43,769 nt of DNA from a virus. Its lineage: Duplodnaviria > Caudoviricetes. The notes below the pieces were generated by a model that was not told where the DNA came from, ran no database searches, and was given only the letters and a program-made list of their open reading frames with translations. The stretch lies in the IMG/VR virus record IMGVR_UViG_3300031454_000011, positions 1 through 43,769 of that record. One strand, 5' to 3'. How positions within the stretch are numbered: position 1 is the first letter of the stretch; every line of letters begins with the position of its first letter. The position numbers and the translations under genes were made by a program. Shown here piece after piece: positions 1-27,672 of the stretch.

Positions 1-127
1 TGCGGAGAATAGAAATGTGCGATTTTTCGCCTGGCTTTGGGCCTGACTACGATACCCTAGCTAAAATTGCTTACGTTACTCCTTACACGATTGAAGAATT
101 GAGCGCGATAGCTAGGGAGCGAAGTCT
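1..127. repeat. Terminal direct repeat (circularity overlap), copy 1
   Basis: Bases 1-127 are identical to 43643-43769. 127 nt is a common assembler k-mer length, and an ORF reads across the junction. Confidence 0.95.
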
Positions 128-245
128 TGAGATGGTGCGAACTTATCGAGTAGCTGAGGATGTTCTTCCAGCAATTAGAGAATTGCCGAAAGTCCAAAGA
201 CTCCGGCTAATTCAAATGATTGCTTCAGAGATGATCCACGAATAG
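1..245 (+). CDS. 3' part of a junction-spanning XRE-like HTH regulator (133 aa in total, start at 43486)
   Basis: ORF 15..245 is in frame with the ATG at 43486 once the sequence is circularised: MANGHGYTTQGVKDLAKIIKQARGFLSYRDFE...VPFSTLRRIE...PDYDTLAKIA. Confidence 0.8.
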   Translation, partial: RRIEMCDFSPGFGPDYDTLAKIAYVTPYTIEELSAIARERSLEMVRTYRVAEDVLPAIRELPKVQRLRLIQMIASEMIHE

Positions 246-255
246 AGCTACATCG

Positions 256-804
256 CTACTTAATCCGTATGCTTGTTCCGCGCTCTGCTAACCTGGCCCA
301 TTCTAGTTGTTCTCCTGCTTGCAGAGCTTCGGCAATCGCTTTTCTATCAAGCTCAATTGAGGTTACTTGAAAGCGGGCATCAATTTTTGAGTAATCGATT
401 TGCTGCGTTATTACTACAGGTAAACTACCGCCATTTTTAGCTAAATTCAGTTTATATCGTGCAGTCTGTATTGATTTAAGGTCATGCAATTGAAAAAACA
501 TCTTTAAGCGCCCCTTTAAAAGTTTGATGCGCGTTTCATCAGCTTGTGCTAGGGAGCTTAGTCGTTCCGCTTCCTTACGTCTAGCAAGAGCCGTCGCTTG
601 TAGTTGAGCTATGTAAGCGCAATATCCGTCGAGCTTGCGATCGCGCTCCTCTCCTAATTTTTCAAACCAATCATTTATCAATTGCTGCTGCTGTTCGTCT
701 CCTTCGTCCCACTCGTCGAGTAAGTCGGCAAGTGTTTCTAAGTCGTGACCGATATCAAATAAAGTCCGGCGAGTAGTTGTAGTAGAGGAATCTTCACTAA
801 TCAT
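256..804 (-). CDS. Siphovirus Gp157-family protein
   Basis: Helical coiled coil (KLDGYCAYIAQLQA...EAERL), a KNGG motif and a C-terminal ARLAERGTSIRIK typical of Gp157. Confidence 0.85.
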   Translation of the reverse strand: MISEDSSTTTTRRTLFDIGHDLETLADLLDEWDEGDEQQQQLINDWFEKLGEERDRKLDGYCAYIAQLQATALARRKEAERLSSLAQADETRIKLLKGRLKMFFQLHDLKSIQTARYKLNLAKNGGSLPVVITQQIDYSKIDARFQVTSIELDRKAIAEALQAGEQLEWARLAERGTSIRIK

Positions 805-902
805 TTTTTTTGTTCTCAGTAGGTGTTCAGGTTTGTTAGTTGAAAAATAAACTAATCAGAACTGGTTTGTTCGGATTAGTTTGTTCAGGTTAGTCAGATG
901 GC

Positions 903-1871
903 TCAGATGTTAGTCGCGCTAGGAATTGATTGCAAGTAGTCTAAAAAGTGTTCTAGTTCGCTCTCTATCAATAACGAGCGGCTAGATTTACCAAATGTAG
1001 CTTTTAGGTACGCCTTGCCTTCCTGCTTGCTCATTCCAGTACGCTCCAGTTCTACGGAGGTAGCCGCAATTAAATCAGATAAGTCTACAGGTTCAGCCGA
1101 TTTTAAAGCTGGCAGTTCTCTATTAATCAGTTGCGCTTTAACTTGGTTATCTTGCGATCGCGCTAAGAGCAAGCCAAACTCCGGGTCTATCTCTAGATGG
1201 CATAGCCAGCGCTTCATAGGAAACGTATTGCCGTTATCGTCAGTGCGGCTAATTGTTTTCTCAGTGCGGCAAAACTTGAACGGTATCTTAGTTAAATCAA
1301 AGCTGCTGTAAGCCTCCAAGTTGCCTTGGATTTCTACAATGTCGTGGATAGAGTGAGTAGTTAAGCTTACTTGTCCTGGGTAATTAAGGTCAGGTAGGAA
1401 AAACCTTAACCTACCTGTAGGCGCGCAACTCATGGGGCATTTATTCATCCCTTCAAGGGCCGCGCAGGGTATCGGTTCCTTTGATAGCGTCCCTTTCTCC
1501 GTCGTATGCAAGCTTACAAATTCACCATTACAGCGCCTTGTACAGCGCTCTATACCCTTTACTTGTTTCCATACCTCGTTATCGGTAGCAAAATTTTGTT
1601 CAGGTTCGCTATGGGCAAATCTAATCCGAACAGTGCGAGGTTTTTCTCCTAGCTCCAAATATCTAGCTTTTAGTTCGTCGTATAAGCTTCCAAACCCTTT
1701 AATCATTGCTGGGAACTCTCTAAGCCTTTCGCTAGGCTCAAATCTGAAATGGTCTAAATCCTCCCCAAAAATCTCCTTGCCACTAGCGTTGGTACGCTTA
1801 GGCGAACCCTTGTAAAGTCTACCGATTTCGCTAAATCTTGGGCGTATTTGTCCTGGTCTTACTAATGCCAT
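903..1871 (-). CDS. Gp3-like (phiC31 recombination directionality factor-like) recombination/replication protein
   Basis: N-terminal IGRLYKG...DLDHFRF, Cys-rich RRCNGE...C...C...C.PTGRLRF and TTHSIHDI motifs. Confidence 0.65.
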   Translation of the reverse strand: MALVRPGQIRPRFSEIGRLYKGSPKRTNASGKEIFGEDLDHFRFEPSERLREFPAMIKGFGSLYDELKARYLELGEKPRTVRIRFAHSEPEQNFATDNEVWKQVKGIERCTRRCNGEFVSLHTTEKGTLSKEPIPCAALEGMNKCPMSCAPTGRLRFFLPDLNYPGQVSLTTHSIHDIVEIQGNLEAYSSFDLTKIPFKFCRTEKTISRTDDNGNTFPMKRWLCHLEIDPEFGLLLARSQDNQVKAQLINRELPALKSAEPVDLSDLIAATSVELERTGMSKQEGKAYLKATFGKSSRSLLIESELEHFLDYLQSIPSATNI

Positions 1872-1940
1872 CGTTCTCCTAGGGCGATTAAAAAAAATAA
1901 AATAACCCGAACACCTTTGTTCTGGTTATTTTTGTGCTGG

Positions 1941-2183
1941 TTATTCTACGTCAACGCCAGCGACTTGATACTTAGTGTCAGCTTTGTAGCTAACACCTTT
2001 TAAAACGGGCATAGCTTGCTCCTTAACGCTGTTCTTGGCCTGCTCCCAAAGCATCTGAGCTACAGCCTCAGTGTCTTCGTCATCGTCCACACTGCCCCAC
2101 ATCGTAATGCCTAGCTCCATTGATTCGTAGTTACCTAGATTGAACTTTCTCCGGTACTCAACAGCTATCTTCCCTACTTTCAT
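1941..2183 (-). CDS. Small phage protein with a FNLGNYES motif
   Basis: 80-aa ORF with a GGAG RBS; the motif is common in phage hypothetical proteins. Confidence 0.7.
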   Translation of the reverse strand: MKVGKIAVEYRRKFNLGNYESMELGITMWGSVDDDEDTEAVAQMLWEQAKNSVKEQAMPVLKGVSYKADTKYQVAGVDVE

Positions 2184-2324
2184 TACTTACTCCAATAATT
2201 ATTATGTGTTTCTCTTGTCAACTTTTTGATAAACTGCCATGAGGGGAAGTCTATCTAAAAATTTAACCTGAGCGCGTATACCTGAACAAAATAACCAGAA
2301 CAATCGCGTTCTGATTATTTTTTC

Positions 2325-2477
2325 TTACACCCACTTTTGCTGAAACTGGATATTTTTGCCAAAGTTGGCATTTTGAATCGCTCGTTGTGCATCCCACGCT
2401 TGGTTGTAGGAAAATAATCCTGCAAAAATCCAAGTCACGCCATTATCGAAGGAGTAAAGAAGTGAAACGTTATTCAT
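2325..2477 (-). CDS. Hypothetical 50-aa protein (not in ORF track)
   Basis: MNNVSLLYSFDNGVTWIFAG...; its ATG overlaps the upstream TAA (TAATG coupling). Confidence 0.6.
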   Translation of the reverse strand: MNNVSLLYSFDNGVTWIFAGLFSYNQAWDAQRAIQNANFGKNIQFQQKWV

Positions 2478-2686
2478 TACTCGATACCTTCCTTAATAGC
2501 TGCTGTAAGTTGTTCGATTGAATCGATGTAATCTTCTGCTTCAATGGTTAGTTCGTCCGGTTCAATTGAGGAATCGTTTAAAATTTCCTCAAGTTGTGCA
2601 ATTACTTCCTTTAGGCTTGTTAAATCGCGCTTTACTGTATCTTTCATTTTTTTGCTCCTCAGTGTGTGCGAGATAAACCCGAACAA
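2477..2686 (-). CDS. Hypothetical acidic helical protein (likely start ~2647)
   Basis: ORF; a GAGGAG RBS precedes the ATG of MKDTVK. Confidence 0.65.
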   Translation of the reverse strand: MFGFISHTLRSKKMKDTVKRDLTSLKEVIAQLEEILNDSSIEPDELTIEAEDYIDSIEQLTAAIKEGIE

Positions 2687-2711
2687 CTGTTGTTCGGGTT
2701 AGGTAATTTAT

Positions 2712-3032
2712 TTAGAAAGGCGCTTCGTTGGGGTCTTCTGTTTCTTCCCAGTAGCTAGTAATTCCGAACCCCTTTAACCAGGGAGTAGTCTCAACTAGTT
2801 CGCGTACTTTTTCGATACTACGCTCAGAAACTACCACATCTAAAATCTTCCAGGTGTCAGGGATTCCATCGCGATCGCAAGTGTAACTAGCCACTTCAAC
2901 TGTATAGCGGTAAGCAGGCTTCAAGTGGAAGTTCTCAACTCGCTCTGTCAAGTAATTAACTTGTCCAGTCGTTGGGCAAAATTGCTCCCAGGTTTGCGCT
3001 GTCTGTACTGATTCGACTGATTGAGTCATCAT
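2712..3032 (-). CDS. Hypothetical protein, first gene of the leftward early operon
   Basis: 106-aa ORF with an AAGGA RBS, ending in EAPF. Confidence 0.7.
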   Translation of the reverse strand: MMTQSVESVQTAQTWEQFCPTTGQVNYLTERVENFHLKPAYRYTVEVASYTCDRDGIPDTWKILDVVVSERSIEKVRELVETTPWLKGFGITSYWEETEDPNEAPF

Positions 3033-3056
3033 AGTTTTATCCTTTATTGGTGTAAT

Positions 3057-3090
3057 GCCTTCTCTATGTCCGTAGAGGAGGCTTTTTTTT
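3057..3090 (+). terminator. Intrinsic terminator-like hairpin
   Basis: GCCTTCTCTA-TGTCCG-TAGAGGAGGC followed by T8. Confidence 0.6.
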
Positions 3091-3181
3091 GTCTCGTCTA
3101 TTTAAGTTGCTTGGGTATCTCTTCCAGGCGTACCGCTTTCCGTCTTCCCTGGTTGTTCTCGTTTCCCTTGCTTATATAACT

Positions 3182-3232
3182 AATATAACAACCTGTTAGT
3201 GTATTGTCAATAGGTTAGTGCTAATTAGTTAG
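3182..3232 (-). promoter_or_regulatory. Leftward sigma70-type promoter with overlapping operators (PL-like)
   Basis: On the minus strand, TTGACA-17 nt-TATATT, overlapped by CTAACnnGTTAG-like palindromes. Confidence 0.75.
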
Positions 3233-4454: not shown

Positions 4455-4777
4455 GAGGTAAAGTTATGGATTTTTGGGACAGACTCGATTTTATTGATGA
4501 AGTGAATTACACCTATCACGACAAAGGAGGAAAGAAAAATTTTATAAATGATTTTTGGGGGAATTTGTATCTAAGTAAGGTTAATATTTGCCTGTTTTTT
4601 GGATGGGAAAGCACCCAAGAGCCTGATTCGGATTGGATAAGTGGATTTGCTTATTTTGATGAAGAAGCGAGATGTGATGGGCTTGCACCAAGAGACTCTT
4701 GGGATTGGAAAGAAATTTGCACTACAGCAAGTTTTACAGATTGGCACTACGGAATTTTAGAAAATTGCAATTATTAA
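4448..4777 (+). CDS. Hypothetical aromatic/acidic protein (likely start 4466)
   Basis: ORF within the operon; GAGG precedes the ATG of MDFWDRL. Confidence 0.6.
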   Translation: MLRGKVMDFWDRLDFIDEVNYTYHDKGGKKNFINDFWGNLYLSKVNICLFFGWESTQEPDSDWISGFAYFDEEARCDGLAPRDSWDWKEICTTASFTDWHYGILENCNY

Positions 4778-4793
4778 ATAGGAAATAACAATC

Positions 4794-7454
4794 ATGCAGA
4801 CATTAGTAAAATTTGCTCCATCAAAATACCAGCAAGCTATTTTTGATTTTGTTACAGAAGGCAGAGGCGATGCGGTAGTTAATGCCGTGGCTGGTAGTGG
4901 TAAAACTTCTACTCTAGTTGAAGCCTCGAAGCTACTGAGAAGCGACCGCGCTTTGTTCCTAGCGTTCAACAAACACATCGCTACTGAGCTAGAATCACGC
5001 CTTGGCAGGGCGATGGCGGCTAAAACGATTCACTCTATCGGTGTCGGGTGTTTGCGTTCCTACCTTCCTCGTGTAACAGTTGACGAATCGAAAATAGGCG
5101 ACATTAGTAAGCCCTACTCAATTGAGATAAGCAACCATCTAGAGAAGGCTTACCAGTTGCAACTAAAAGCTTGGTATAGAGATCCAGCAGGAGACCCGCC
5201 CCAAGAACCTCCTAACTTCGGCGTAGCAATCGGTTTGTTTAAAAAAATTGTTCATTTTATCCGCGTAACTCTTACTGATGTTAAAGATAAAGCAGCAGTG
5301 GAGGCTATGTGCGATCGCTTTGGTTGCATCGATGAGGGAGGGGACTTGGTTCCCTTCGATACTCTTTACACTTACTTGCCTACAATCCTTTCTGAGTGCG
5401 AACGCAACGCCGAGCGAGGAATTATTGACTACGATGATATGCTTTGGCTCCCCTACATTTGGAGCTTGCAGCCTCCTAAGTACGAATGGATTTTTGTAGA
5501 TGAATGCTTACCAGGAGATAGCTTAGTTACTTTGGCTGATGGCTCCCAACTACCCATTCAAACTATTGTTGAAAATCGGATACCAATATCAGTCTTGTGC
5601 TACAATGAACAAACATCCAAGATTGAAGTTAAAGCTGTAACAGGGTGGCGGAAAGTTCCGCGTCGAGGTCGTCAGATTATGCAGATTGGTAATCTGCAAG
5701 CGACTGAAGATCATCCTATTTACACAAAAGAATTTGGATATATCTCTATGAAGTCTGCATTGACTTATGGAGATGTTCACGTAATGGTTTTAAACAGTGA
5801 AAAAGTACGATCCGAGTGTGCAGTTAACGCATCGGGAGCAGTCGATTATCGTCGGTGGGCTACTTGGCGACGCATCAATCAGCAGGGGGGTTTGGAAGGG
5901 GAAACTGTGCAATGCCAGAGTAAGATTTATCCAAGGACAAGCACAGCTACCTTACCTAGAGTGGAAACAGTCAGAGCTACAGCGATGGGTAGGCACTTCG
6001 ATATCAACGACACCACAACAGACAGAGTATGGAGGGACGGTTTACCGTTTTGCAACTTTAACTCATCCAGTATTTACAGAAGTCTGTCAGTTAATCAAAC
6101 CGAATGGTGGAAAGAAACGAATAACTCAAGCACTTCTGCCATACCTTACCGATTTAGCTCTAGCAGTGTGGTTTATGGACGATGGATCGATCGGGTACTC
6201 GGATGCACGTATAGCTACCTATGCGCTACCAAGTCAAGATTTGGATCTAGTTGCCGATTACCTGACTCAAACTGGTTTAACTTGCAAGAGGATGGAGACA
6301 ACCAAGGGCAATATTCTAACTTTCACGGCAGTAGGGATGCGATCGCTAGAGAAAAGAATTGCGCCATTTATACACCCGTGTTTAGCGTACAAGATAGGGC
6401 AAACTGCACCAGGAACATGCGTGGTTTGCAGCAAGATTTTTTTAGTTCGCAAGATTTCGTCGCCATTGCGAACACCTCAGACTTGCAGCAGAAGTTGCAA
6501 TGTGCAGCTAGGACACAAAGCGCGGAGGTTGAACAAGATGAATGGGTCTATTGCTTAGATGTGGCAGATAATCATAACTTTTTTGCTGATGGTGCTTTGG
6601 TTCACAATTGCCAAGATTTGAGCGCTGCCCAGCTTGACCTAGTTTTAAAATTGCGCGCTCCAGGCGGTCGAATGTTGTTTGTCGGCGACCCTAAACAAGC
6701 TGTGTACGGTTTTGCTGGTGCTGATAGTGAATCATTCGAGCGAATCATCGAACGAACATCTGCAACTGTATTACCTCTTAGTATCTGCTATCGCTGCCCA
6801 GCTACTCATATTAAACTCGCTCAAGCTATCGTTGCAGAAATTGAAGCCAAGGAGGATGCGACTGAGGGCATCGTCGAAGATATTAAACCTAATGCAGTGC
6901 ATGAAATGATTAAGGAGGGCGATTTAATTATCTCTCGTTGCACCGCGCCTGTAGTTAAGCTTTGCATAGAACTGATAGCCAAACGCATTCCTGCTAGGGT
7001 ACGAGGGCGCGATATCGGTAAAGCTTTAACTACAATCGTCCGTGATGTAGCCAAGCATCCTGAATTTAGTTTTGATAAATTCGGTTATTACCTTGAGGAA
7101 TACGCAGACATCAGACTCAATAAGTTAAAGCAGAAGCGGAACAGCGAGGCTCAAATTGAATCATTTAGCGATCGCATCCAAGGCATTGAGGTTTGCTACG
7201 AAGCCTTTAATGCTAAGAGCCTAGGAGACTTGCAGCGAGAGATTGAGGCGCTGTTTAGTGATTCTCGCTCCTCTGTTATCTTATCTACCGTACATCGAGC
7301 TAAGGGACTTGAGAACGAGCGCGTATTTATCCTAGAGCCTGATAAACTCCCTCTACGGTGGATAGGTCAGCAAAAGTGGCAATTAGAACAGGAATTTAAC
7401 GTTAAATACATTAGTTTGACAAGAGCTAAAAGCGCTTTATACTTCATCAGATAA
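4794..7454 (+). CDS. UvrD/Rep-like SF1 helicase precursor containing an intein (mature protein ~518 aa)
   Basis: Walker A AVAGSGKT; Walker B VDE|CQD split by the intein; VGDPKQAVYGF, CYRC, STVHRAKGLE and YISLTRAK motifs. Confidence 0.92.
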   Translation: MQTLVKFAPSKYQQAIFDFVTEGRGDAVVNAVAGSGKTSTLVEASKLLRSDRALFLAFNKHIATELESRLGRAMAAKTIHSIGVGCLRSYLPRVTVDESKIGDISKPYSIEISNHLEKAYQLQLKAWYRDPAGDPPQEPPNFGVAIGLFKKIVHFIRVTLTDVKDKAAVEAMCDRFGCIDEGGDLVPFDTLYTYLPTILSECERNAERGIIDYDDMLWLPYIWSLQPPKYEWIFVDECLPGDSLVTLADGSQLPIQTIVENRIPISVLCYNEQTSKIEVKAVTGWRKVPRRGRQIMQIGNLQATEDHPIYTKEFGYISMKSALTYGDVHVMVLNSEKVRSECAVNASGAVDYRRWATWRRINQQGGLEGETVQCQSKIYPRTSTATLPRVETVRATAMGRHFDINDTTTDRVWRDGLPFCNFNSSSIYRSLSVNQTEWWKETNNSSTSAIPYRFSSSSVVYGRWIDRVLGCTYSYLCATKSRFGSSCRLPDSNWFNLQEDGDNQGQYSNFHGSRDAIAREKNCAIYTPVFSVQDRANCTRNMRGLQQDFFSSQDFVAIANTSDLQQKLQCAARTQSAEVEQDEWVYCLDVADNHNFFADGALVHNCQDLSAAQLDLVLKLRAPGGRMLFVGDPKQAVYGFAGADSESFERIIERTSATVLPLSICYRCPATHIKLAQAIVAEIEAKEDATEGIVEDIKPNAVHEMIKEGDLIISRCTAPVVKLCIELIAKRIPARVRGRDIGKALTTIVRDVAKHPEFSFDKFGYYLEEYADIRLNKLKQKRNSEAQIESFSDRIQGIEVCYEAFNAKSLGDLQREIEALFSDSRSSVILSTVHRAKGLENERVFILEPDKLPLRWIGQQKWQLEQEFNVKYISLTRAKSALYFIR
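5505..6608 (+). mobile_element. Intein (368 aa) inserted in helicase motif II
   Basis: Block A CLPGDSLVTLADG, block B ATEDHPIY, block F/G VYCLDVADNHNFFADGALVHN, followed by Cys+1. Confidence 0.93.
5797..6558 (+). CDS. LAGLIDADG homing endonuclease nested in the +1 frame of the intein
   Basis: Two motifs, IIVGGLLGDASI and LAVWFMDDGS, plus a C-terminal CxxC...CxxxC; GTG start. Confidence 0.88.
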   Translation: MKKYDPSVQLTHREQSIIVGGLLGDASISRGVWKGKLCNARVRFIQGQAQLPYLEWKQSELQRWVGTSISTTPQQTEYGGTVYRFATLTHPVFTEVCQLIKPNGGKKRITQALLPYLTDLALAVWFMDDGSIGYSDARIATYALPSQDLDLVADYLTQTGLTCKRMETTKGNILTFTAVGMRSLEKRIAPFIHPCLAYKIGQTAPGTCVVCSKIFLVRKISSPLRTPQTCSRSCNVQLGHKARRLNKMNGSIA

Positions 7455-7464
7455 ATATCAACAT

Positions 7465-7549
7465 TTGGGTAGAGTTTATATTAACTTTACCCAACTCTAT
7501 TTATGTGAGTATATAATAGTAGTATAAGCACAGTAAAGGAACTAGATAA
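7465..7549 (+). promoter_or_regulatory. Repeated hairpin + promoter + RBS cassette, copy A
   Basis: TTGGGTAGAGTT/AACTTTACCCAA hairpin, then GAGTATATAATAGTAGTATAAGCA and AAAGGA. Confidence 0.7.
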
Positions 7550-7801
7550 ATGAATCCTCAAGTACAAATCAAACTAACAAGCGACCGCAACCTTAACTTA
7601 GACGCTTTGATGATTATGGGACTAGCGGAACGTAAGAATGGGTACGATGTAACCTCCAACAAGTTTGTTCAGTGTTGCAATGAAATCTATCAAATCTCTA
7701 GTAAAGGAGACACCCACAGACAATCGAAATTGCACTGGCTACTTAAGGATTTGATGCAAATCAATAATGTAGATTGGATTGAAACTTTACAGTACGTTTA
7801 A
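7550..7801 (+). CDS. Hypothetical early protein
   Basis: ORF directly after cassette A. Confidence 0.75.
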   Translation: MNPQVQIKLTSDRNLNLDALMIMGLAERKNGYDVTSNKFVQCCNEIYQISSKGDTHRQSKLHWLLKDLMQINNVDWIETLQYV

Positions 7802-11192: not shown

Positions 11193-11702
11193 CTATTTTT
11201 TAGGAACCCAAGCTTTACCAAACTCTTGCTTTCCTGCTTGCTCTGGCATCCCAGCGCGATTATTGAGCCTTACTACTTCCTCGCGTTCCATCCCTAATCG
11301 CTTCATTAGCTCCTCTTGTGAGACTCCAGCTTCTAAAATCTCGCGAATGATTTGCGCCATCTTGAGGACGGTATGAGTTCCCCTAGCGCGATTATGTCTG
11401 ATGGTACTTAGTTGACGATGTACCAAATCAGCTTTTACTTGAACTGTAGGTACTAAACCATTAGTTAAGCGGTAGATGCGATCATCGCTACTGACTAGCC
11501 AACGGTGATAACCATCGATAATTTGATACCTTTCATTTTGTTCGGGCAAAGTAACGATTGGTTGCGTCCAGCCATCTTCTAGGATTGAGGTTTTGAGTAA
11601 TTCAAGTTCTGTAGCTTGCACTCGGTTCGGATTATAAAGGTTCGGGTCTAAATCATCTCTAGATACCCAATTCACATTAGATATAGGTTGGTTATCAAAC
11701 AC
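11193..11702 (-). CDS. ParB/Srx-like nuclease-domain protein (IbrB-like)
   Basis: PNLYNPNRV...SILEDGWTQPIV...IIDGYHRW...STIRHNRARGTH. Confidence 0.88.
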   Translation of the reverse strand: MFDNQPISNVNWVSRDDLDPNLYNPNRVQATELELLKTSILEDGWTQPIVTLPEQNERYQIIDGYHRWLVSSDDRIYRLTNGLVPTVQVKADLVHRQLSTIRHNRARGTHTVLKMAQIIREILEAGVSQEELMKRLGMEREEVVRLNNRAGMPEQAGKQEFGKAWVPKK

Positions 11703-12870
11703 CTAATTCCAGCGCCTCCTCGTAAGTAATTCCTAGCTTTTTGCATTGGGCTTGGGCGTGTTTTAGTAACTGCCCGGCTTTTCTCCCTTTCAAGTCTCCC
11801 TGGTTGATACATTTAGCTATCCACTTCCAGCTAAGTCCTGTTAATGGGTCTGGCTCGGTTTCAGGGATGGTGCGCTTAGTTTTAGATTGATGTAGTTTAA
11901 TCATTCCAGCTACGCTTTTAGCTATCTGTACCTTATCTTCCGGTTCGTATAGTTCAATTAAGGAGTAACACCAATCTCGATAACGCATCCCTGGAGGCGG
12001 TTCTTTACTCGATGTACCATACAAATCTGTTAAAGCATACCTCCAGGCAGTAGCTACCCCATCTACGCGCGTTAGCATTTTCTCCCATAGGTCAGGGAAG
12101 CATTCGGCATACTGCCATAAACCGTTAAGCGGTTCTTCTCCAAAGGGCGGTGTTACGCGCTGTAAGTTCTTTGATATACCTACCATCGCTTGGATATCAT
12201 AATGGCGGTTATAGTCCCAGCCATGAAGCTGCGGCGCTATCCAGACATCATCTATCGACCAATCATAGACAGGACTTGTTGGGTAATAATTACCATACTT
12301 CCCTGCCGCGTTTTGACCTATCCAGTTATCAGTTTCGCGCCTAGTTACGCTTTGTAATCGCCTAATACTCTCAGCCGTCCTTATCCCTCGGATGCAAGCG
12401 ACGTTACCGTAGGGATGAGGCGGATACAGTAGCGCCATGATATCCGGTACATTCATCCCAATTTGAAAACCTGAGATACTGGTAATTGCTCCTATAGGTA
12501 GTTCTCTTACCCATTTGCTCCTATCATCAGGATGCCAAGGATACCAATAAGGCTGGCTTCTACTGCAAGCATTACGATGTTTAACTGGTACGCACACCCA
12601 TTTAAAAGTTACGTCAGCGCGCGATCGCACTCGCTCTAGATACTCCTCAGTTTCAAAAGTAATTGCTTCTTCATCAATAAAGCAAACTTCTAAGGGTAGT
12701 CGATTACGCTTATGAGCTACTTCCAACGCTAAATTCAGGCAAACTGTAGAATCTTTACCGCCGCTAAAGCTTACCATTACCGTATCGAATCTATCGTACA
12801 GTAGGTTAATTCGAGCGATTGCTGCCTCATAAACTGACGAACTGGTATGATGCTTTTTTAAACTAGGCAC
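11695..12870 (-). CDS. PAPS-reductase-like PP-loop protein (IbrA/DUF3440-like)
   Basis: SFSGGKDS, GIRTAESIRR, PVYDWSIDDVW and RVTPPFGEE motifs. Confidence 0.88.
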   Translation of the reverse strand: MPSLKKHHTSSSVYEAAIARINLLYDRFDTVMVSFSGGKDSTVCLNLALEVAHKRNRLPLEVCFIDEEAITFETEEYLERVRSRADVTFKWVCVPVKHRNACSRSQPYWYPWHPDDRSKWVRELPIGAITSISGFQIGMNVPDIMALLYPPHPYGNVACIRGIRTAESIRRLQSVTRRETDNWIGQNAAGKYGNYYPTSPVYDWSIDDVWIAPQLHGWDYNRHYDIQAMVGISKNLQRVTPPFGEEPLNGLWQYAECFPDLWEKMLTRVDGVATAWRYALTDLYGTSSKEPPPGMRYRDWCYSLIELYEPEDKVQIAKSVAGMIKLHQSKTKRTIPETEPDPLTGLSWKWIAKCINQGDLKGRKAGQLLKHAQAQCKKLGITYEEALELGV

Positions 12871-13564
12871 GAGTTTTTACTCTTTCTATTTTGGATGCTG
12901 AAACGCCATCTATCATCGTGCGATTGAGCATCGGGTGGTTCTCGTCGGTAGGACCATAGTCAGAATCAGGATGATAAGCGATTACTATTAATTCCTCATC
13001 TCTCGTACTAAACGAATGATACTCATCTTTTGGAATTAGAAATGCTAACCCTGGCTCTAGTGCAATACATCCTTCTTCAGTGACGCATTCTCCCCAACCA
13101 CTGACGACAACACCTGCTCTAAAACTTGGATGGGTATGTGGCGTTTGCTCGCAATGTGGTGGGAAGTACAGCGCGTTAAGGCATGGATCGCCTTCTATAA
13201 TAGGCGGTATCAATAAGGAATCAGAACAGCCATCGATGTACCGTAACCTACCATAGGGTTCGATAGGACCGCCAAAGGTAAACATCCCTTTATATCCTCT
13301 AGCCGTAATGATTACCCCTTCACCATCCCCCCATAGCGTCCCATTGCTAGGCAAAGCACAATACATCCCTGCTCCTAAGCTAAAGGTATAGGTAGTATGC
13401 GGATTATTCCAAACAGCGCGACCTGAATAGACGTAAACAAAATGGGTAGCATTACCAGTCAGATGCTTAATTTCATGCTTCCAGGTGTGCATTGTAGTCG
13501 GGATTTCATCATCTAGGTTTACAGATGAGCCATTTAATTGATAAGTGGTAAATGATTTATTCAT
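12863..13564 (-). CDS. Cupin-domain protein
   Basis: QTPHTHPSFRAGVVVSGWG...HSF metal-binding cupin motifs; also LRYIDGCSDSLL. Confidence 0.82.
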   Translation of the reverse strand: MNKSFTTYQLNGSSVNLDDEIPTTMHTWKHEIKHLTGNATHFVYVYSGRAVWNNPHTTYTFSLGAGMYCALPSNGTLWGDGEGVIITARGYKGMFTFGGPIEPYGRLRYIDGCSDSLLIPPIIEGDPCLNALYFPPHCEQTPHTHPSFRAGVVVSGWGECVTEEGCIALEPGLAFLIPKDEYHSFSTRDEELIVIAYHPDSDYGPTDENHPMLNRTMIDGVSASKIERVKTRA

Positions 13565-14204
13565 GGTTTAAATAATCCTGTACTATTGCATCTAACGCTT
13601 CTGCTGTCGTCTCTAATCCATGCTTACTTTTTACTTCATTTATAGCTAAAAATAACCTTTCTCGCTGCTCTTGGCTCAATAAAACGTGAAATGGTAGCAA
13701 ATCTGATTGCTCTCCAGTTTTCTCTACTTCTACGCGCTTTTTATCTTCTTTGGTTGGCTCGTTTCCCATTCCTTCAAAAGCAGCTAAATCAAAACTATCG
13801 TTAACTAAAGCAAGTTCAGTTTCATTCCAGAGGTTAGTAGAGATGAGCAAGTCTATATCAGCCGTAAGTATATCTGCATCCCAGCTTAAATCTAACTCTC
13901 CAATTCGGTTATCTGAGTACGCCAGGAGTCGAGCGCGATCGTCTTCCTCTAGGTCTAAATCATCTCTGACTACTACTACTAACTTATCGCCTTGGGTATG
14001 GACTAGCTCAGTTTCTAATCCTAGTTCTAGCGCTTGCTCATAAGTCTTATTACCTGCTAAAAGCGTCCCGTTGCGATCGCATAAAACAGACCTACCCGCT
14101 CCTAGCTGCTCTAATGATTCGCGCAACAGTTGCTTGCCTCTATTCGTCCCCTTGTTAGCATTAAATTCATCAAACTTCAGAGTCAACTTTTCTTTACTAG
14201 CCAT
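13557..14204 (-). CDS. ParB/Srx-like N-terminal domain protein (type often fused to phage methylases)
   Basis: NANKGT.RG...SL..LGAGRSVL.D...LAGNKT...DNRIGEL..WD. Confidence 0.7.
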   Translation of the reverse strand: MASKEKLTLKFDEFNANKGTNRGKQLLRESLEQLGAGRSVLCDRNGTLLAGNKTYEQALELGLETELVHTQGDKLVVVVRDDLDLEEDDRARLLAYSDNRIGELDLSWDADILTADIDLLISTNLWNETELALVNDSFDLAAFEGMGNEPTKEDKKRVEVEKTGEQSDLLPFHVLLSQEQRERLFLAINEVKSKHGLETTAEALDAIVQDYLNHE

Positions 14205-24255: not shown

Positions 24256-24705
24256 ATGGGTATATTCGATATTTTCAAGAAATCAGAATCCGAACCCGAA
24301 CCAGAACAAACCGAACCAGAACAACCGCAAATAGAACCAGAAATTTTACTAGCACCCGTCGCGCTAGAACCTGAACAGCCACAACCAAAGGAGCAAAAAA
24401 TGTCAGAAGTTTCACAACCCCCTACTTCGTCAGAGTTGCCGCCAGGACACCCGGGAGAGCCTACAGCAGCAGCAAGTTCTAGTACCGATATAGGAGCAGA
24501 ACAGAAGACTACTGAAGCTGTAGTACCTGTTTTTGACCCTAATAAGGTAGAGCAGCTACCTAAGTCCTATATCGATACTCAAGTAGAAGTTACGGATAAG
24601 GCAGAGCAGCTTACTGAAGATAGAGGAGAAAAAGCGACTGAGGAAGTTAAAGCAGCCGAGCAAGTTCAAACTTTTGAATCTAAGTTAGAGAAAGGAGCAG
24701 AGTGA
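24256..24705 (+). CDS. E/P/Q-rich disordered protein
   Basis: Amino-acid composition; AAGGA RBS. Confidence 0.7.
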   Translation: MGIFDIFKKSESEPEPEQTEPEQPQIEPEILLAPVALEPEQPQPKEQKMSEVSQPPTSSELPPGHPGEPTAAASSSTDIGAEQKTTEAVVPVFDPNKVEQLPKSYIDTQVEVTDKAEQLTEDRGEKATEEVKAAEQVQTFESKLEKGAE

Positions 24706-26957
24706 GCTTAGAAGCATTAATTGATAGTGCAGTAAATAGAGATGGGAAGAGTGGCGGCGAATCTACTGTAGTCGCGGTAGATTTGCAGCAAAAAATTGAG
24801 TTTTCAGTTAGAGGCGGCGCGATTGAATTTTTTCCTTTACAGGATGATGAAAAAGATACGAGACGGAAGTTTATAAATAAAATTTTCAAGGATAATCGTC
24901 TTAGCCAGCGCTTAGAATATGCAATGGCATTGTTTCTAACTAAAGGCGAAATCTTGTGGTTAGTTTTGCCTGATGACGAGGGGAACTATCTAATTGAGTT
25001 TTTTCACGGCGGAGCTACAAATAGCGATCCTGAGTACAAAGTTTTTTATAAATCAGGCGGTCGTAAAATTGATAGCGTAATCATTACTTACGCTTACAAA
25101 ACTAGCGCTCCCTTTGGCAATTTTGAGATTGAGCGCTGGGTAAAATTGACGCTAACTGAGGACTGGATTGAGCAAGCCGATTTACCAAGCAAACCGAGTT
25201 TGTCAGGAAGTATTAACGCGCTGTCCTCTGATGGCGCTCCCGTAAAAACTGAGCGCTATCCTAACCCGTTCGCGCCGACAATCCCTGTCGTCATCTCAGC
25301 AAATAACCCTAAACGGACAGGACAGCCAGGCACCTCCGATTATCACTGGCTAAAAAATCAAATTGAAGGTCACGAGCGCGATATCGGACATATCCGGCGC
25401 AATTTAAAGTTTTTTGGTAATCCTACGTTAGTTACTACTAGATCGCCTTCTGAAGTTACTGAAGCCGCAGACAGAGGTTTGCACGTCCCTACCTGGTCAT
25501 CGCAGCAAGGCTATACCGATGGGTTCGGCGATGGCTACTCGCGGAGTAGTAGAGTAGCTGACCCGCTTAGTCGATACGCGCCAGGACAAGGCGGCGGCGG
25601 CAACGAGCGAGTAGCACAAATTATCGGAGGAGTAGCAGAAGGTGAAAGATTTGGTTACATCATGCCTGACCCGGTTACAGGCGACCTTAGCCAGTTTGCG
25701 CGCCAGGAGCGTGAGCTTATCCATTATGCTCTTGGCGGTATTGACCCGCTCGGTATGTCGTCTGGAGCTACAGCTTTCGAGATTAAAACACTTTTTGGAC
25801 GAGTTGAAAATACAGCAGACGGCAAAGCAGACGGACTCTACACGCATGGATTAACGCTAGTTTTTGAGCAAATCCTTTACTTTGAGGAGAAAATGTTCAA
25901 GGATTCTCTATTCGTAGGGATGATTGAAGCTGAACCAAAGAGATGGCCCAAACTTGTAGATCCCTCGCAAATATCTGACGAAATCTCTCAAGTAATTTAT
26001 CAAACATACCTTGAGGGAAAAATAAAGCTATCTCAAGAACCTCAAGGGATAATGCCACTAGGCGATCGCACTGTTAACTGGAGATATACACGCCCAGTCT
26101 TTAAAAATTCTACTAGAGAGATGTTAGACCTTAGTATCGCGGCTCGTAATGCTAGAGAAGATGGTTTATCTCAAGAGTATTGTCTGAGGTTGCAACACCC
26201 AGATATGACTGATAAAGAAATCCAGAATGTGATGAGCGGATTTAGCCCCAGAGTAGTAGAAGGAGCTAGTAATTCTATCTCAATACTAATACAATTGTAC
26301 CAACAGTTTATGCAACTTCCCGATCCACTAGATCCAACAATAGCTTGGGGAGCGCGATTAAATGTTGGGGAAATGCTCGAACAAGGATTGTTAACTTTAT
26401 ACAAAGAACTAGCTTATGGTAAACCAAAATACGATCCAGCCCAGTCCAGCCCAACAATTAATGCAAGCGCCGCCGAACTACGGATACCAGGGGGAAGCAG
26501 TAGCATACAGCCAAGCGCCCCAACAGCAGCAGCCGCAGCCGCCGCAGCAGCAGCAGCCGCAGCAATACCAAGCTACTTACCCGCAGATCCAGCCGCCTCA
26601 ATGGTCGCCTATGGCTTACCCGCAACCGCACCAATTCCCAACTCAGCAGCAACCCAGCCAGCTTACGGAACTGGGCAAGATAGTAGACTTCTTTCGGGAA
26701 CGGGACAGCCGTACGCAATCCCCGCTCCAGGCGCAACCATCAACCCAACCGCTAGATCAGTTCAGCCCTATGGGTACGGCGCAAATGGTAGCAGTTCCCA
26801 GTCAGGCATTCCATCAGGAGTACCAGCAGAATTTATCAGCAATCCCCTCTTATGGAGTCTCTACGCCCCTCAGTACGGCTACGGCTACTCCGATGGCTCA
26901 GATGGTTCCACAGGTTCAGTTGCTAACTCAAAGCGTCGCTCCTCCAAGCGTAAGTAA
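24702..26957 (+). CDS. Probable portal protein
   Basis: Size and position between terminase and scaffold/capsid; NLKFFGNPTL motif; low-complexity tail. Confidence 0.7.
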   Translation: MSLEALIDSAVNRDGKSGGESTVVAVDLQQKIEFSVRGGAIEFFPLQDDEKDTRRKFINKIFKDNRLSQRLEYAMALFLTKGEILWLVLPDDEGNYLIEFFHGGATNSDPEYKVFYKSGGRKIDSVIITYAYKTSAPFGNFEIERWVKLTLTEDWIEQADLPSKPSLSGSINALSSDGAPVKTERYPNPFAPTIPVVISANNPKRTGQPGTSDYHWLKNQIEGHERDIGHIRRNLKFFGNPTLVTTRSPSEVTEAADRGLHVPTWSSQQGYTDGFGDGYSRSSRVADPLSRYAPGQGGGGNERVAQIIGGVAEGERFGYIMPDPVTGDLSQFARQERELIHYALGGIDPLGMSSGATAFEIKTLFGRVENTADGKADGLYTHGLTLVFEQILYFEEKMFKDSLFVGMIEAEPKRWPKLVDPSQISDEISQVIYQTYLEGKIKLSQEPQGIMPLGDRTVNWRYTRPVFKNSTREMLDLSIAARNAREDGLSQEYCLRLQHPDMTDKEIQNVMSGFSPRVVEGASNSISILIQLYQQFMQLPDPLDPTIAWGARLNVGEMLEQGLLTLYKELAYGKPKYDPAQSSPTINASAAELRIPGGSSSIQPSAPTAAAAAAAAAAAAAIPSYLPADPAASMVAYGLPATAPIPNSAATQPAYGTGQDSRLLSGTGQPYAIPAPGATINPTARSVQPYGYGANGSSSQSGIPSGVPAEFISNPLLWSLYAPQYGYGYSDGSDGSTGSVANSKRRSSKRK

Positions 26958-27672
26958 TGAGGTTGCGAATTTACAAAATGCCAATCAGCAGTTGAATGAT
27001 GCAGTAATGCAACTAAAGCAACAACTGCAACTAGCAAACATGGGGTTAGAGGTAGCTACTGAGTTTAGCCAAGGGCAGCATCAATTAATCAACTTGCTTT
27101 CTACTTTTGTGATGGGAGAAACAGCTACTCGTGAGCTTTCCGAAGGACAAGATAAGTTAATTGAGTTTCTAGCTGATTTACTTAGCGATGCAGATTACTT
27201 GCTTTACTGGGCTTTTGAGATTTGGCATCAAGCAAAGCCATCTCCTCAATTTATGGAGATACTTAGCGATGCTTACCTAAAACTTTCAGAGATGCACCCG
27301 CCACAAAATCAGCCCAGTAACGAGCAAAGCGCATTAAATCGAATTGCTCAAGGTCAGCAATCAGTTAACCAGATGTATGCAAACCCTTTGCAGCCTGCTC
27401 AAACTGTTCCTGTCCAAGTTGGAATTCAGCCATCAAATGAACTCATGCAATTATCACAGATGGCAGCAGCACAACAGCAACAGCAGCAGCAATTACAAGG
27501 TTTCATGCGCCCCTCGGTTCCTGCTCCTCCGATACCTTCCCAAAATGGAAATGGTAACGGATGGAATGGAGTAAGGCAAAATATGCAAAGTGGTAATACT
27601 TTGCAAGCATTGCGAGAGGTCGGTCAGTTGTCGGCTACTGATTGGCGTGAAATGTTCAGTACACAAAACTAA
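26416..27672 (+). CDS. Q/P-rich putative scaffolding protein
   Basis: Low-complexity ends around a helical core; lies upstream of the capsid gene and overlaps the portal by 542 nt. Confidence 0.6.
   Translation: MVNQNTIQPSPAQQLMQAPPNYGYQGEAVAYSQAPQQQQPQPPQQQQPQQYQATYPQIQPPQWSPMAYPQPHQFPTQQQPSQLTELGKIVDFFRERDSRTQSPLQAQPSTQPLDQFSPMGTAQMVAVPSQAFHQEYQQNLSAIPSYGVSTPLSTATATPMAQMVPQVQLLTQSVAPPSVSNEVANLQNANQQLNDAVMQLKQQLQLANMGLEVATEFSQGQHQLINLLSTFVMGETATRELSEGQDKLIEFLADLLSDADYLLYWAFEIWHQAKPSPQFMEILSDAYLKLSEMHPPQNQPSNEQSALNRIAQGQQSVNQMYANPLQPAQTVPVQVGIQPSNELMQLSQMAAAQQQQQQQLQGFMRPSVPAPPIPSQNGNGNGWNGVRQNMQSGNTLQALREVGQLSATDWREMFSTQN

Follow-up and report, generated by a model that had tools for sequence, protein, structure and literature searches.

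Homing nucleases encoded out of frame within inteins have been described before. The cyanobacterial dnaX intein contains an out-of-frame LAGLIDADG nuclease, for which ratios of nonsynonymous to synonymous substitution (dN/dS, or omega) were reported in both frames (Phillips, DeSimone, Gogarten; bioRxiv 10.64898/2026.09.14.751524). That preprint credits the out-of-frame idea to Gorbalenya 1998 and describes it as an alternate frame, whereas a second preprint describes it as antisense (bioRxiv 10.1101/2025.01.02.630785); in the Nostoc dnaX locus, we find the nuclease on the same strand in the +2 frame. The second preprint also lists actinobacteriophage inteins with antisense LAGLIDADG, antisense Vsr-like, and frame-3 endonuclease VII-like nucleases, and proposes that free-standing nucleases invade inteins (Gosselin, Arsenault, Gogarten). 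Two other systems are the ShiLan element, an out-of-frame HNH gene in a phage methylase (PMC11855218; Arsenault et al.), and fractured genes, in which a free-standing nuclease lies between the halves of a split intein (PMC2677866; Dassa et al.). Here we analyze an intein in a UvrD/Rep-like helicase gene of a phage, on the 43,769-base virus record IMGVR_UViG_3300031454_000011 (hereafter the window, meaning its full length), in which a LAGLIDADG nuclease gene is nested in the +1 frame of an intein whose own frame stays open. An earlier note on this DNA had implied that the arrangement might be novel, subject to a check of the literature, which contradicts this: the layout is already published, and the window is a new member with a different register and host range. 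New here are a clade in the +1 register (dnaX is +2), a coding reason that favors +1, and split-intein forms at the same site.

Like the dnaX intein, the window has a same-strand LAGLIDADG gene of the same Pfam family nested between the splicing halves, an open and predicted disordered host frame, low omega in the nuclease frame with high omega in the host frame, and an insertion point between the Walker B Asp-Glu and a Cys. The dnaX nuclease lies in the +2 register (locus L246: host gene 1-3186, nuclease 435-1442) and carries a long N-terminal extension but lacks the Cys-rich tail, whereas the window nuclease lies in +1 and has a C-terminal Cys tail. The two enzymes are 27% identical over 198 residues, and the dnaX host is a chromosomal clamp loader, whereas hosts in the window's clade are phage helicases and terminases. 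We reject membership in the dnaX out-of-frame lineage on the basis of the +1 register, the helicase host, and the C-terminal tail. The dnaX group and the window's clade separate in both the nuclease and splicing-domain trees; approximately unbiased (AU) tests rejected neither a joint clade of the two (p 0.41), nor a single clade of all +1 nucleases (p 0.36), nor a clade of all +1 nucleases plus dnaX (p 0.44).

The actinophage inteins resemble the window in being phage inteins with an open host frame and a nuclease in another frame, and in a patchy distribution that is read there as continued homing; the four types listed there do not include a same-strand +1 LAGLIDADG gene, and the four hosts do not include helicases. 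ShiLan, like the window, has a nested nuclease that starts at a GTG and lacks a ribosome-binding site, in a host frame that stays open, but is described as an HNH enzyme in the third frame with no splicing domain. In fractured genes, the 3′ end of the nuclease gene extends 6-69 bp into the gene downstream at 15 of 26 loci, as the window's nuclease extends into intein block F, but the host frame is broken, splicing is in trans, and the enzymes belong to the GIY-YIG or Vsr-like types. We found no title or abstract that names a LAGLIDADG intein of the +1 kind in UvrD helicases of phages, in a search that could not reach most subscription journals or bioRxiv supplements. The window combines one open host frame, a nested open reading frame (ORF) between the splicing halves, and selection in the nuclease frame, which together define a non-canonical intein with an out-of-frame nuclease.

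We consider it probable that the window carries an intein at the Walker B site of a phage helicase, with a +1 nested nuclease that is likely to be translated on its own and is predicted to spread by cutting intein-free alleles. Ribosomes would translate the 886-residue precursor, the splicing halves would fold around a floppy loop of ~250 residues, and splicing is predicted to release a 518-residue helicase. Free nuclease would come from other ribosomes that initiate at an internal GTG (position 5797), where the mRNA is weakly folded and lacks a Shine-Dalgarno site. The nuclease would then cut the empty Walker B site in the helicase gene of a co-infecting or resident genome, and repair would copy the intein and the nuclease together.

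Several observations support the assignment of host gene and intein. First, the precursor matched Pfam UvrD-helicase (E 3e-16), UvrD_C (E 1e-12), and the DNA helicase family phrog_1967 (E 5e-78), and its C-extein shares 44-47% identity with the helicases of 7 Nostoc sp. JL33 family genomes. Intein-free relatives read ..DE and then directly C/A-QD.. at the insertion point. Second, class 1 inteins have Cys or Ser at position 1, a TxxH motif in block B, a terminal His-Asn, and Cys, Ser, or Thr at +1, and all of these residues were found (C1, T67, H70, H367, N368, and Cys+1); C1, T67, and H70 are invariant in 9/9 aligned clade members. Third, Pfam Intein_splicing matched with an E-value of 3e-8 (33.9 bits, slightly below the cut-off of 35.8), and a profile of the N-terminal part matched the solved inteins NrdJ-1, Spl DnaX, and DnaB (best E 5e-9). 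Based upon these residues, Hint similarity, and the empty-site homologs, the insert is predicted to be a splicing class 1 intein. Class 3 inteins lack a position-1 nucleophile and have Trp B12, Cys F4, and Thr G5; we reject this class for the window, where Cys F4 is present but the first residue is Cys, with Ile at B12 and Val at G5. Block F position 4 (window 6552-6554), where the usual residue is Asp, is Cys in 8/8 complete clade members (window, L001-L005, L086, L166). A canonical full intein is rejected by the +1 position of the nuclease, and a fractured gene with a split intein by the single uninterrupted 886-residue frame. No Rfam match indicative of an intron or structured RNA was found at E up to 1 within positions 4500-7700.

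By sequence profiles, the nested protein is a monomeric two-motif LAGLIDADG endonuclease of the I-SceI type. It matched LAGLIDADG_2 (PF03161) with an E-value of 5.5e-29 (101.7 bits, cut-off 25), its profile matched I-SceI and PDB 6x1j (E about 1e-19), and its AlphaFold2 model had a mean predicted local distance difference test score (pLDDT) of 86.4. Lys107 and Lys199 align with Lys122 and Lys223 of I-SceI and, like Asp25 and Asp129, are invariant; Asp44, Asp145, and the two lysines of I-SceI are catalytic residues. The Cys-rich tail, in which the number of repeats varies among relatives, likely binds zinc. The nuclease starts at intein codon 98, and its stop is a TAG formed by the Leu-Asp codons of block F, 53 nucleotides before the intein end. 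The earlier note had described a complete two-motif enzyme ending in block F, inside a helicase frame that is open for 886 codons and has no recognizable motifs between blocks B and F; the Pfam match, the I-SceI alignment, the TAG, the stop-free ORF, and the lack of any Pfam family match for the host-frame linker bear out each of these statements. A viral scan with a single protein as query found nothing, alignment-based queries being required, and annotated phage and plasmid records held only distant relatives, at most 31% identical.

Features of the helicase-intein-nuclease locus, in window coordinates.
Feature	Position	Strand	Basis
UvrD/Rep-like (superfamily 1) phage helicase precursor gene, 886 residues	4794..7454	+	Stop-free ORF; Pfam; PHROG
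N-extein; last residues are Walker B Asp-Glu	4794..5504	+	Translation; intein-free relatives
Intein, 368 residues, class 1 type (Cys1 ... His-Asn, Cys+1), whole host frame open	5505..6608	+	Pfam; profile
N-terminal splicing domain, blocks A and B; Thr67-x-x-His70 at 5703-5714	5505..5796	+	Alignment; pN/pS
Host-frame linker over nuclease gene, ~250 residues, polar, predicted disordered	5796..6545	+	Composition; pN/pS; pLDDT
Nested two-motif LAGLIDADG homing endonuclease, 253 residues, GTG start, +1 frame	5797..6558	+	Pfam; profile; AlphaFold2
Asp25, motif 1, aligned with I-SceI Asp44	5869..5871	+	Invariant 9/9; profile alignment
Asp129, motif 2, aligned with I-SceI Asp145	6181..6183	+	Invariant 9/9; profile alignment
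Cys-rich nuclease tail (CxxC ... CxxxC)	6418..6498	+	C208, C211, C230, C234 invariant in 7/7 close homologs
C-terminal splicing domain, blocks F and G; overlaps last nuclease codons and TAG (6556-6558)	6546..6608	+	
C-extein; first residue Cys	6609..7454	+	Similarity to helicases of Nostoc sp. JL33 family

That about 254 codons should be stop-free in both frames had been judged unlikely by chance, and a recoding test agrees. When the nuclease protein was kept unchanged and its codons were drawn anew from phage usage, 15.4 ± 3.1 host-frame stops were expected (minimum 5), none of 20,000 trials was stop-free, and the analytic log10 P for zero host-frame stops was about -8.5. Among controls with a GC content of up to 0.58, 0/147 intein-less and 0/12 in-frame nuclease genes were stop-free in the equivalent frame; three high-GC in-frame nuclease genes were. 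The dual openness of the frames is not a product of chance, and the precursor is probably read through, because avoiding the ~15 expected host-frame stops would otherwise be senseless. An ordinary in-frame intein could mimic this layout if two compensating assembly or sequencing indels had displaced the nuclease, which does occupy the position of in-frame intein nucleases. If the gene were in frame, however, the shifted frame should contain numerous stops (median 25 among low-GC in-frame controls), and here it has none; the same offset recurs in 15 other distinct loci; and the 13 best nuclease-profile matches, out of 1.84 billion proteins, are without exception stand-alone and 253-334 residues long. 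In addition, a second assembly, a Logan contig from a rock metagenome run (depth 226), spans positions 4700-7500 with 0 other letters and 0 gaps, including the regions near 5795 and 6550 that the earlier note had named for a check on indels. Because this run is probably the same sample, possibly the source of the window, and offers assembled contigs in place of reads, the homologs weigh more heavily against assembly error. Compensating indels are very unlikely, and we give an ordinary in-frame intein of this kind almost no weight.

Selection acts differently on the two frames. In 11/11 pairs of nested members, the proportion of nonsynonymous differences (pN) in the nuclease frame was 0.17-0.36, compared with saturated synonymous values (pS) of 0.73-0.87; for the window and L086, pN and pS were 0.25 and 0.74 in the nuclease and 0.22 and 0.84 in the N-terminal splicing domain. 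In the host frame over the nuclease, pN exceeded pS in 10 pairs and about equaled it in the eleventh, and fourfold sites of the nuclease have diverged about as much as those of the exteins. These values indicate that the nuclease sequence is under purifying selection; because host-frame pN is at least pS and fourfold divergence is extein-like, the linker sequence looks free, with only stops forbidden. The linker is also rich in Ser, Thr, Asn, Gln, and Arg (41%, compared with 22% in the exteins). The earlier note had proposed a nested gene whose alternate frame was purged of stops and had called for dN/dS in both frames and for alignment with homologous inteins; the shared layout, the recoding test, and the selection values support the nested gene and the purge of stops. 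The locus is a clear natural example of dual coding over ~250 codons, with one frame selected for sequence and the other only for being stop-free.

Two alternatives bear on these results. In one, the linker is itself a functional domain, such as a splicing regulator, and both frames are selected for sequence. The retention of a long linker in all members and host-frame identities of 23-41% between members would fit, but such identities follow from the first and second codon positions of the nuclease, host-frame pN is not below pS in any pair, nuclease fourfold sites are as saturated as those of the exteins, and the linker has low pLDDT as well as no Pfam match; we regard a functional linker as very improbable. 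In the other, the element is inactive: either the nuclease gene is carried along as a silent or dead passenger, or splicing fails and the helicase gene has lost its function. The Pfam intein score just under its cut-off, the Cys in place of the consensus Asp in block F, and the existence of decayed relatives (L168, L361) point this way, but nuclease, splicing domain, and exteins all have pN far below pS and the acidic and lysine residues that match I-SceI are invariant, which leaves a dead element only a slim chance. L168 (1-1662) itself has host-frame stops and a transposase-like ORF (IS630-like by reading) in the place of block F and looks like a dead copy. L361, which retains a 91-codon remnant of a +1 nuclease, is likely a decay stage.

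The coding rules favor the +1 register. A host-frame stop requires a T-ending nuclease codon before a codon that starts with AA, AG, or GA, and each T-ending codon has a C-ending synonym, so the register is easy to keep. In 17 nested cores, 361/361 pyrimidine-ending codons before AA, AG, or GA end in C, where the absence of T follows from the definition of the class and the informative part is the size of the count; elsewhere, 64% of pyrimidine-ending codons end in T. In the +2 register, the amino acid sequence itself would force one or more stops in 92/156 intein-less nuclease cores.

How is the nested nuclease translated? An ATG or GTG lies 19-20 codons before motif 1 in 9/9 clade members, at intein codons 95-101. 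The start region falls in the weakest-folding quarter of the gene in 12/15 members (window at 0.22), with a mean folding peak of +3.8 kcal/mol at the start (15 members; L019 and L209, with unclear starts, excluded). The main rival to internal initiation is a +1 ribosomal frameshift near intein codon 98, which would produce a fusion of N-extein, N-intein, and nuclease. An A-run follows the start in 7/9 clade members (xTG AAA A), there is no conserved Shine-Dalgarno site, and in the window the +1 frame is open for just one codon ahead of the GTG, which would confine any shift site to that place. A frameshift needs no start codon, however, yet an ATG or GTG is conserved at this position throughout the clade; the host codon ends in T in every clade member; weak folding centered on the start fits initiation; and the A-run has another possible source, as Lys is a common second codon after bacterial start codons. 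We give frameshifting a small chance, and initiation at an internal start without a Shine-Dalgarno site is likely the best reading. The conserved start and the weak folding lend indirect support to the separate nuclease expression that the earlier note had proposed.

Two further candidate signals were considered. A TAnnnT box lies 6 nucleotides before the start in 4/16 members (null mean 1.8, p 0.03 in a post hoc test); a built-in leaderless promoter is rejected for the window, where the box is absent. The four carriers (L002, L004, L166, L167) form one subgroup, three of them with an extended TG, and may have a leaderless promoter. The stop in block F is rejected as a selected feature: a +1 stop 44-56 nucleotides before the intein end occurs in 14/16 nested inteins, 11/13 low-GC in-frame inteins, and 6/20 dnaX-type inteins, and it is uninformative because it is common in low-GC in-frame inteins too.

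Related loci suggest that the element is mobile. Among 269 loci with a related nuclease, 18 rows are +1 nested, corresponding to 16 distinct loci including the window (L007 repeats L006, and L251 repeats L086), and truncated L167 adds to these; a further 22 rows are +2 nested at the dnaX-type site, 45 have an in-frame nuclease, and no intein was detected in 180. The +1 nested elements occupy UvrD-like helicases, SF2 (superfamily 2) helicases, and terminases. The window, L086, L001-L005, and L166 form one clade with support of 99 in the nuclease tree, where truncated L167 and broken L168 also fall within it, and 98 in the splicing-domain tree. By reading of their sequences, the hosts in L003 and L005 appear terminase-like and those in the rest of the clade UvrD-like helicases; the L003 and L005 host genes had no Pfam match. 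Such a clade, spread across helicases and terminases, offers a test of nuclease retargeting among Walker B sites and of nuclease entry into inteins. The window and L086 are 67% identical in the N-terminal splicing domain and 61% in the nuclease but only 27% and 44% in the exteins. The C-extein of L086 is 69-71% identical to intein-free alleles and groups with them, and an AU test rejected a clade of the L086 and window C-exteins (p 3e-5); the long branch of L283 in the extein tree is an apparently truncated row and was excluded from this conclusion. The helicase is present in 12 of the 201 Nostoc sp. JL33 family genomes, with an empty site in nine (5/9 with Cys at +1), the intein in one, and two unparsed. 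Because the nuclease and splicing-domain clades match while exteins group with intein-free alleles, element and host histories differ, as homing predicts. A search of the phage's own genome for a second copy of the empty site gave best 24-nucleotide matches with 6-8 mismatches, the two best being the intein junctions.

Several points weigh against the interpretation of the window as a mobile intein with an independently translated nuclease. First, the product probability for the conserved start (about 2e-4 given the host amino acid) is an inflated statistic, as start codons were chosen by position. Second, Shine-Dalgarno sites are not enriched (2/16 members, null mean 1.45), and there is no -10 box at leaderless spacing in the window and none within the intein. 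Third, the AlphaFold2 model of the host-frame intein is poor (mean pLDDT 39.8, with only residues 1-54 and 345-368 above 50, from a shallow alignment); it fits a floppy linker, yet is weak evidence because block B is equally unresolved. Finally, the closest relative is about 60% identical, which gives no support for recent homing, and patchy loss could be the source of part of the extein pattern.

Nesting in +1 extends beyond the window's clade. A viral scan with a splicing-domain query gave 79 loci, with both ends present in 35 distinct inteins, 19 of them mini-inteins (a duplicate row spanning two L360 inteins was removed). A +1 ORF of at least 150 codons was present in 11/16 long inteins and a +2 ORF in 0/16, the former share being biased upward because the query was built from nested members and 5/11 are re-finds. 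The six newly found +1 ORFs comprise two LAGLIDADG, two HNH, one DUF559, and one with a weak zinc-finger match. Inteins with long featureless linkers have likely been misread as degenerate because gene callers hide nested nucleases. Among individual loci, L298, L351, L360, and L323 have +1 nested ORFs of other kinds (DUF559, HNH twice, weak zinc-finger match); L013, L019, L029, and L015 are nested +1 inteins inserted upstream of the Walker B Asp-Glu, by two or four residues; L361 and L291 are short inteins, sisters of nested L353 and L013/L019/L029; and L271 is a +2 nested intein related to dnaX in a divergent host gene.

Two loci have split forms at the same site. L214 (1935-4558) is a fractured ATPase gene (RarA/MgsA-like by reading) with the Asp-Glu/Cys insertion point, in which an ORF with N-extein and N-intein, a free LAGLIDADG ORF, and an ORF with C-intein and C-extein follow one another; its nuclease is related to that of the window, and its splicing domain pairs with mini-intein L292. 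L023 (1731-4390), which is terminase-like, has its N-intein on a separate ORF that precedes a fusion of nuclease, C-intein, and C-extein; it is either a real split form or a frameshift error. These broken forms lead us to hypothesize that trans-splicing provides a viable route to nesting. A free nuclease gene would land between intein halves while trans-splicing kept the host gene alive; host-frame stops would be lost singly through synonymous T-to-C changes, which are always possible only in +1; and a single precursor frame would be restored, with L214 (three ORFs) and L023 as stages. LAGLIDADG, HNH, and Vsr-like nucleases would each have entered inteins independently along this route. This route stays conjectural because neither L214 nor L023 is sister to the window's clade and L023 may be an error. 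The broader proposal, that +1 nesting is common in inteins of uncultured viruses and arises when fractured split-intein loci close up again, we regard as tentative and rather doubtful.

Terminase, major head, helicase/primase, and endolysin genes, together with a 127-nucleotide overlap of the ends, make the record probably a complete tailed-phage genome. We infer a cyanobacterial host because the closest relative sits in a metagenome-assembled genome of Nostoc sp. JL33. A second long same-strand +1 overlap lies at 26416-26957, where the last 180 codons of a 751-residue virion structural ORF in the portal position (24702-26957) run over the start of a Gln/Pro-rich 418-residue ORF (26416-27672); in recoding tests, P was 0.07 when the structural protein was kept constant and 0.002 when the Gln/Pro-rich protein was. 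PAPS-reductase-like and ParB-like genes cluster on the minus strand at 11695-14204 and are possibly a DNA modification module.

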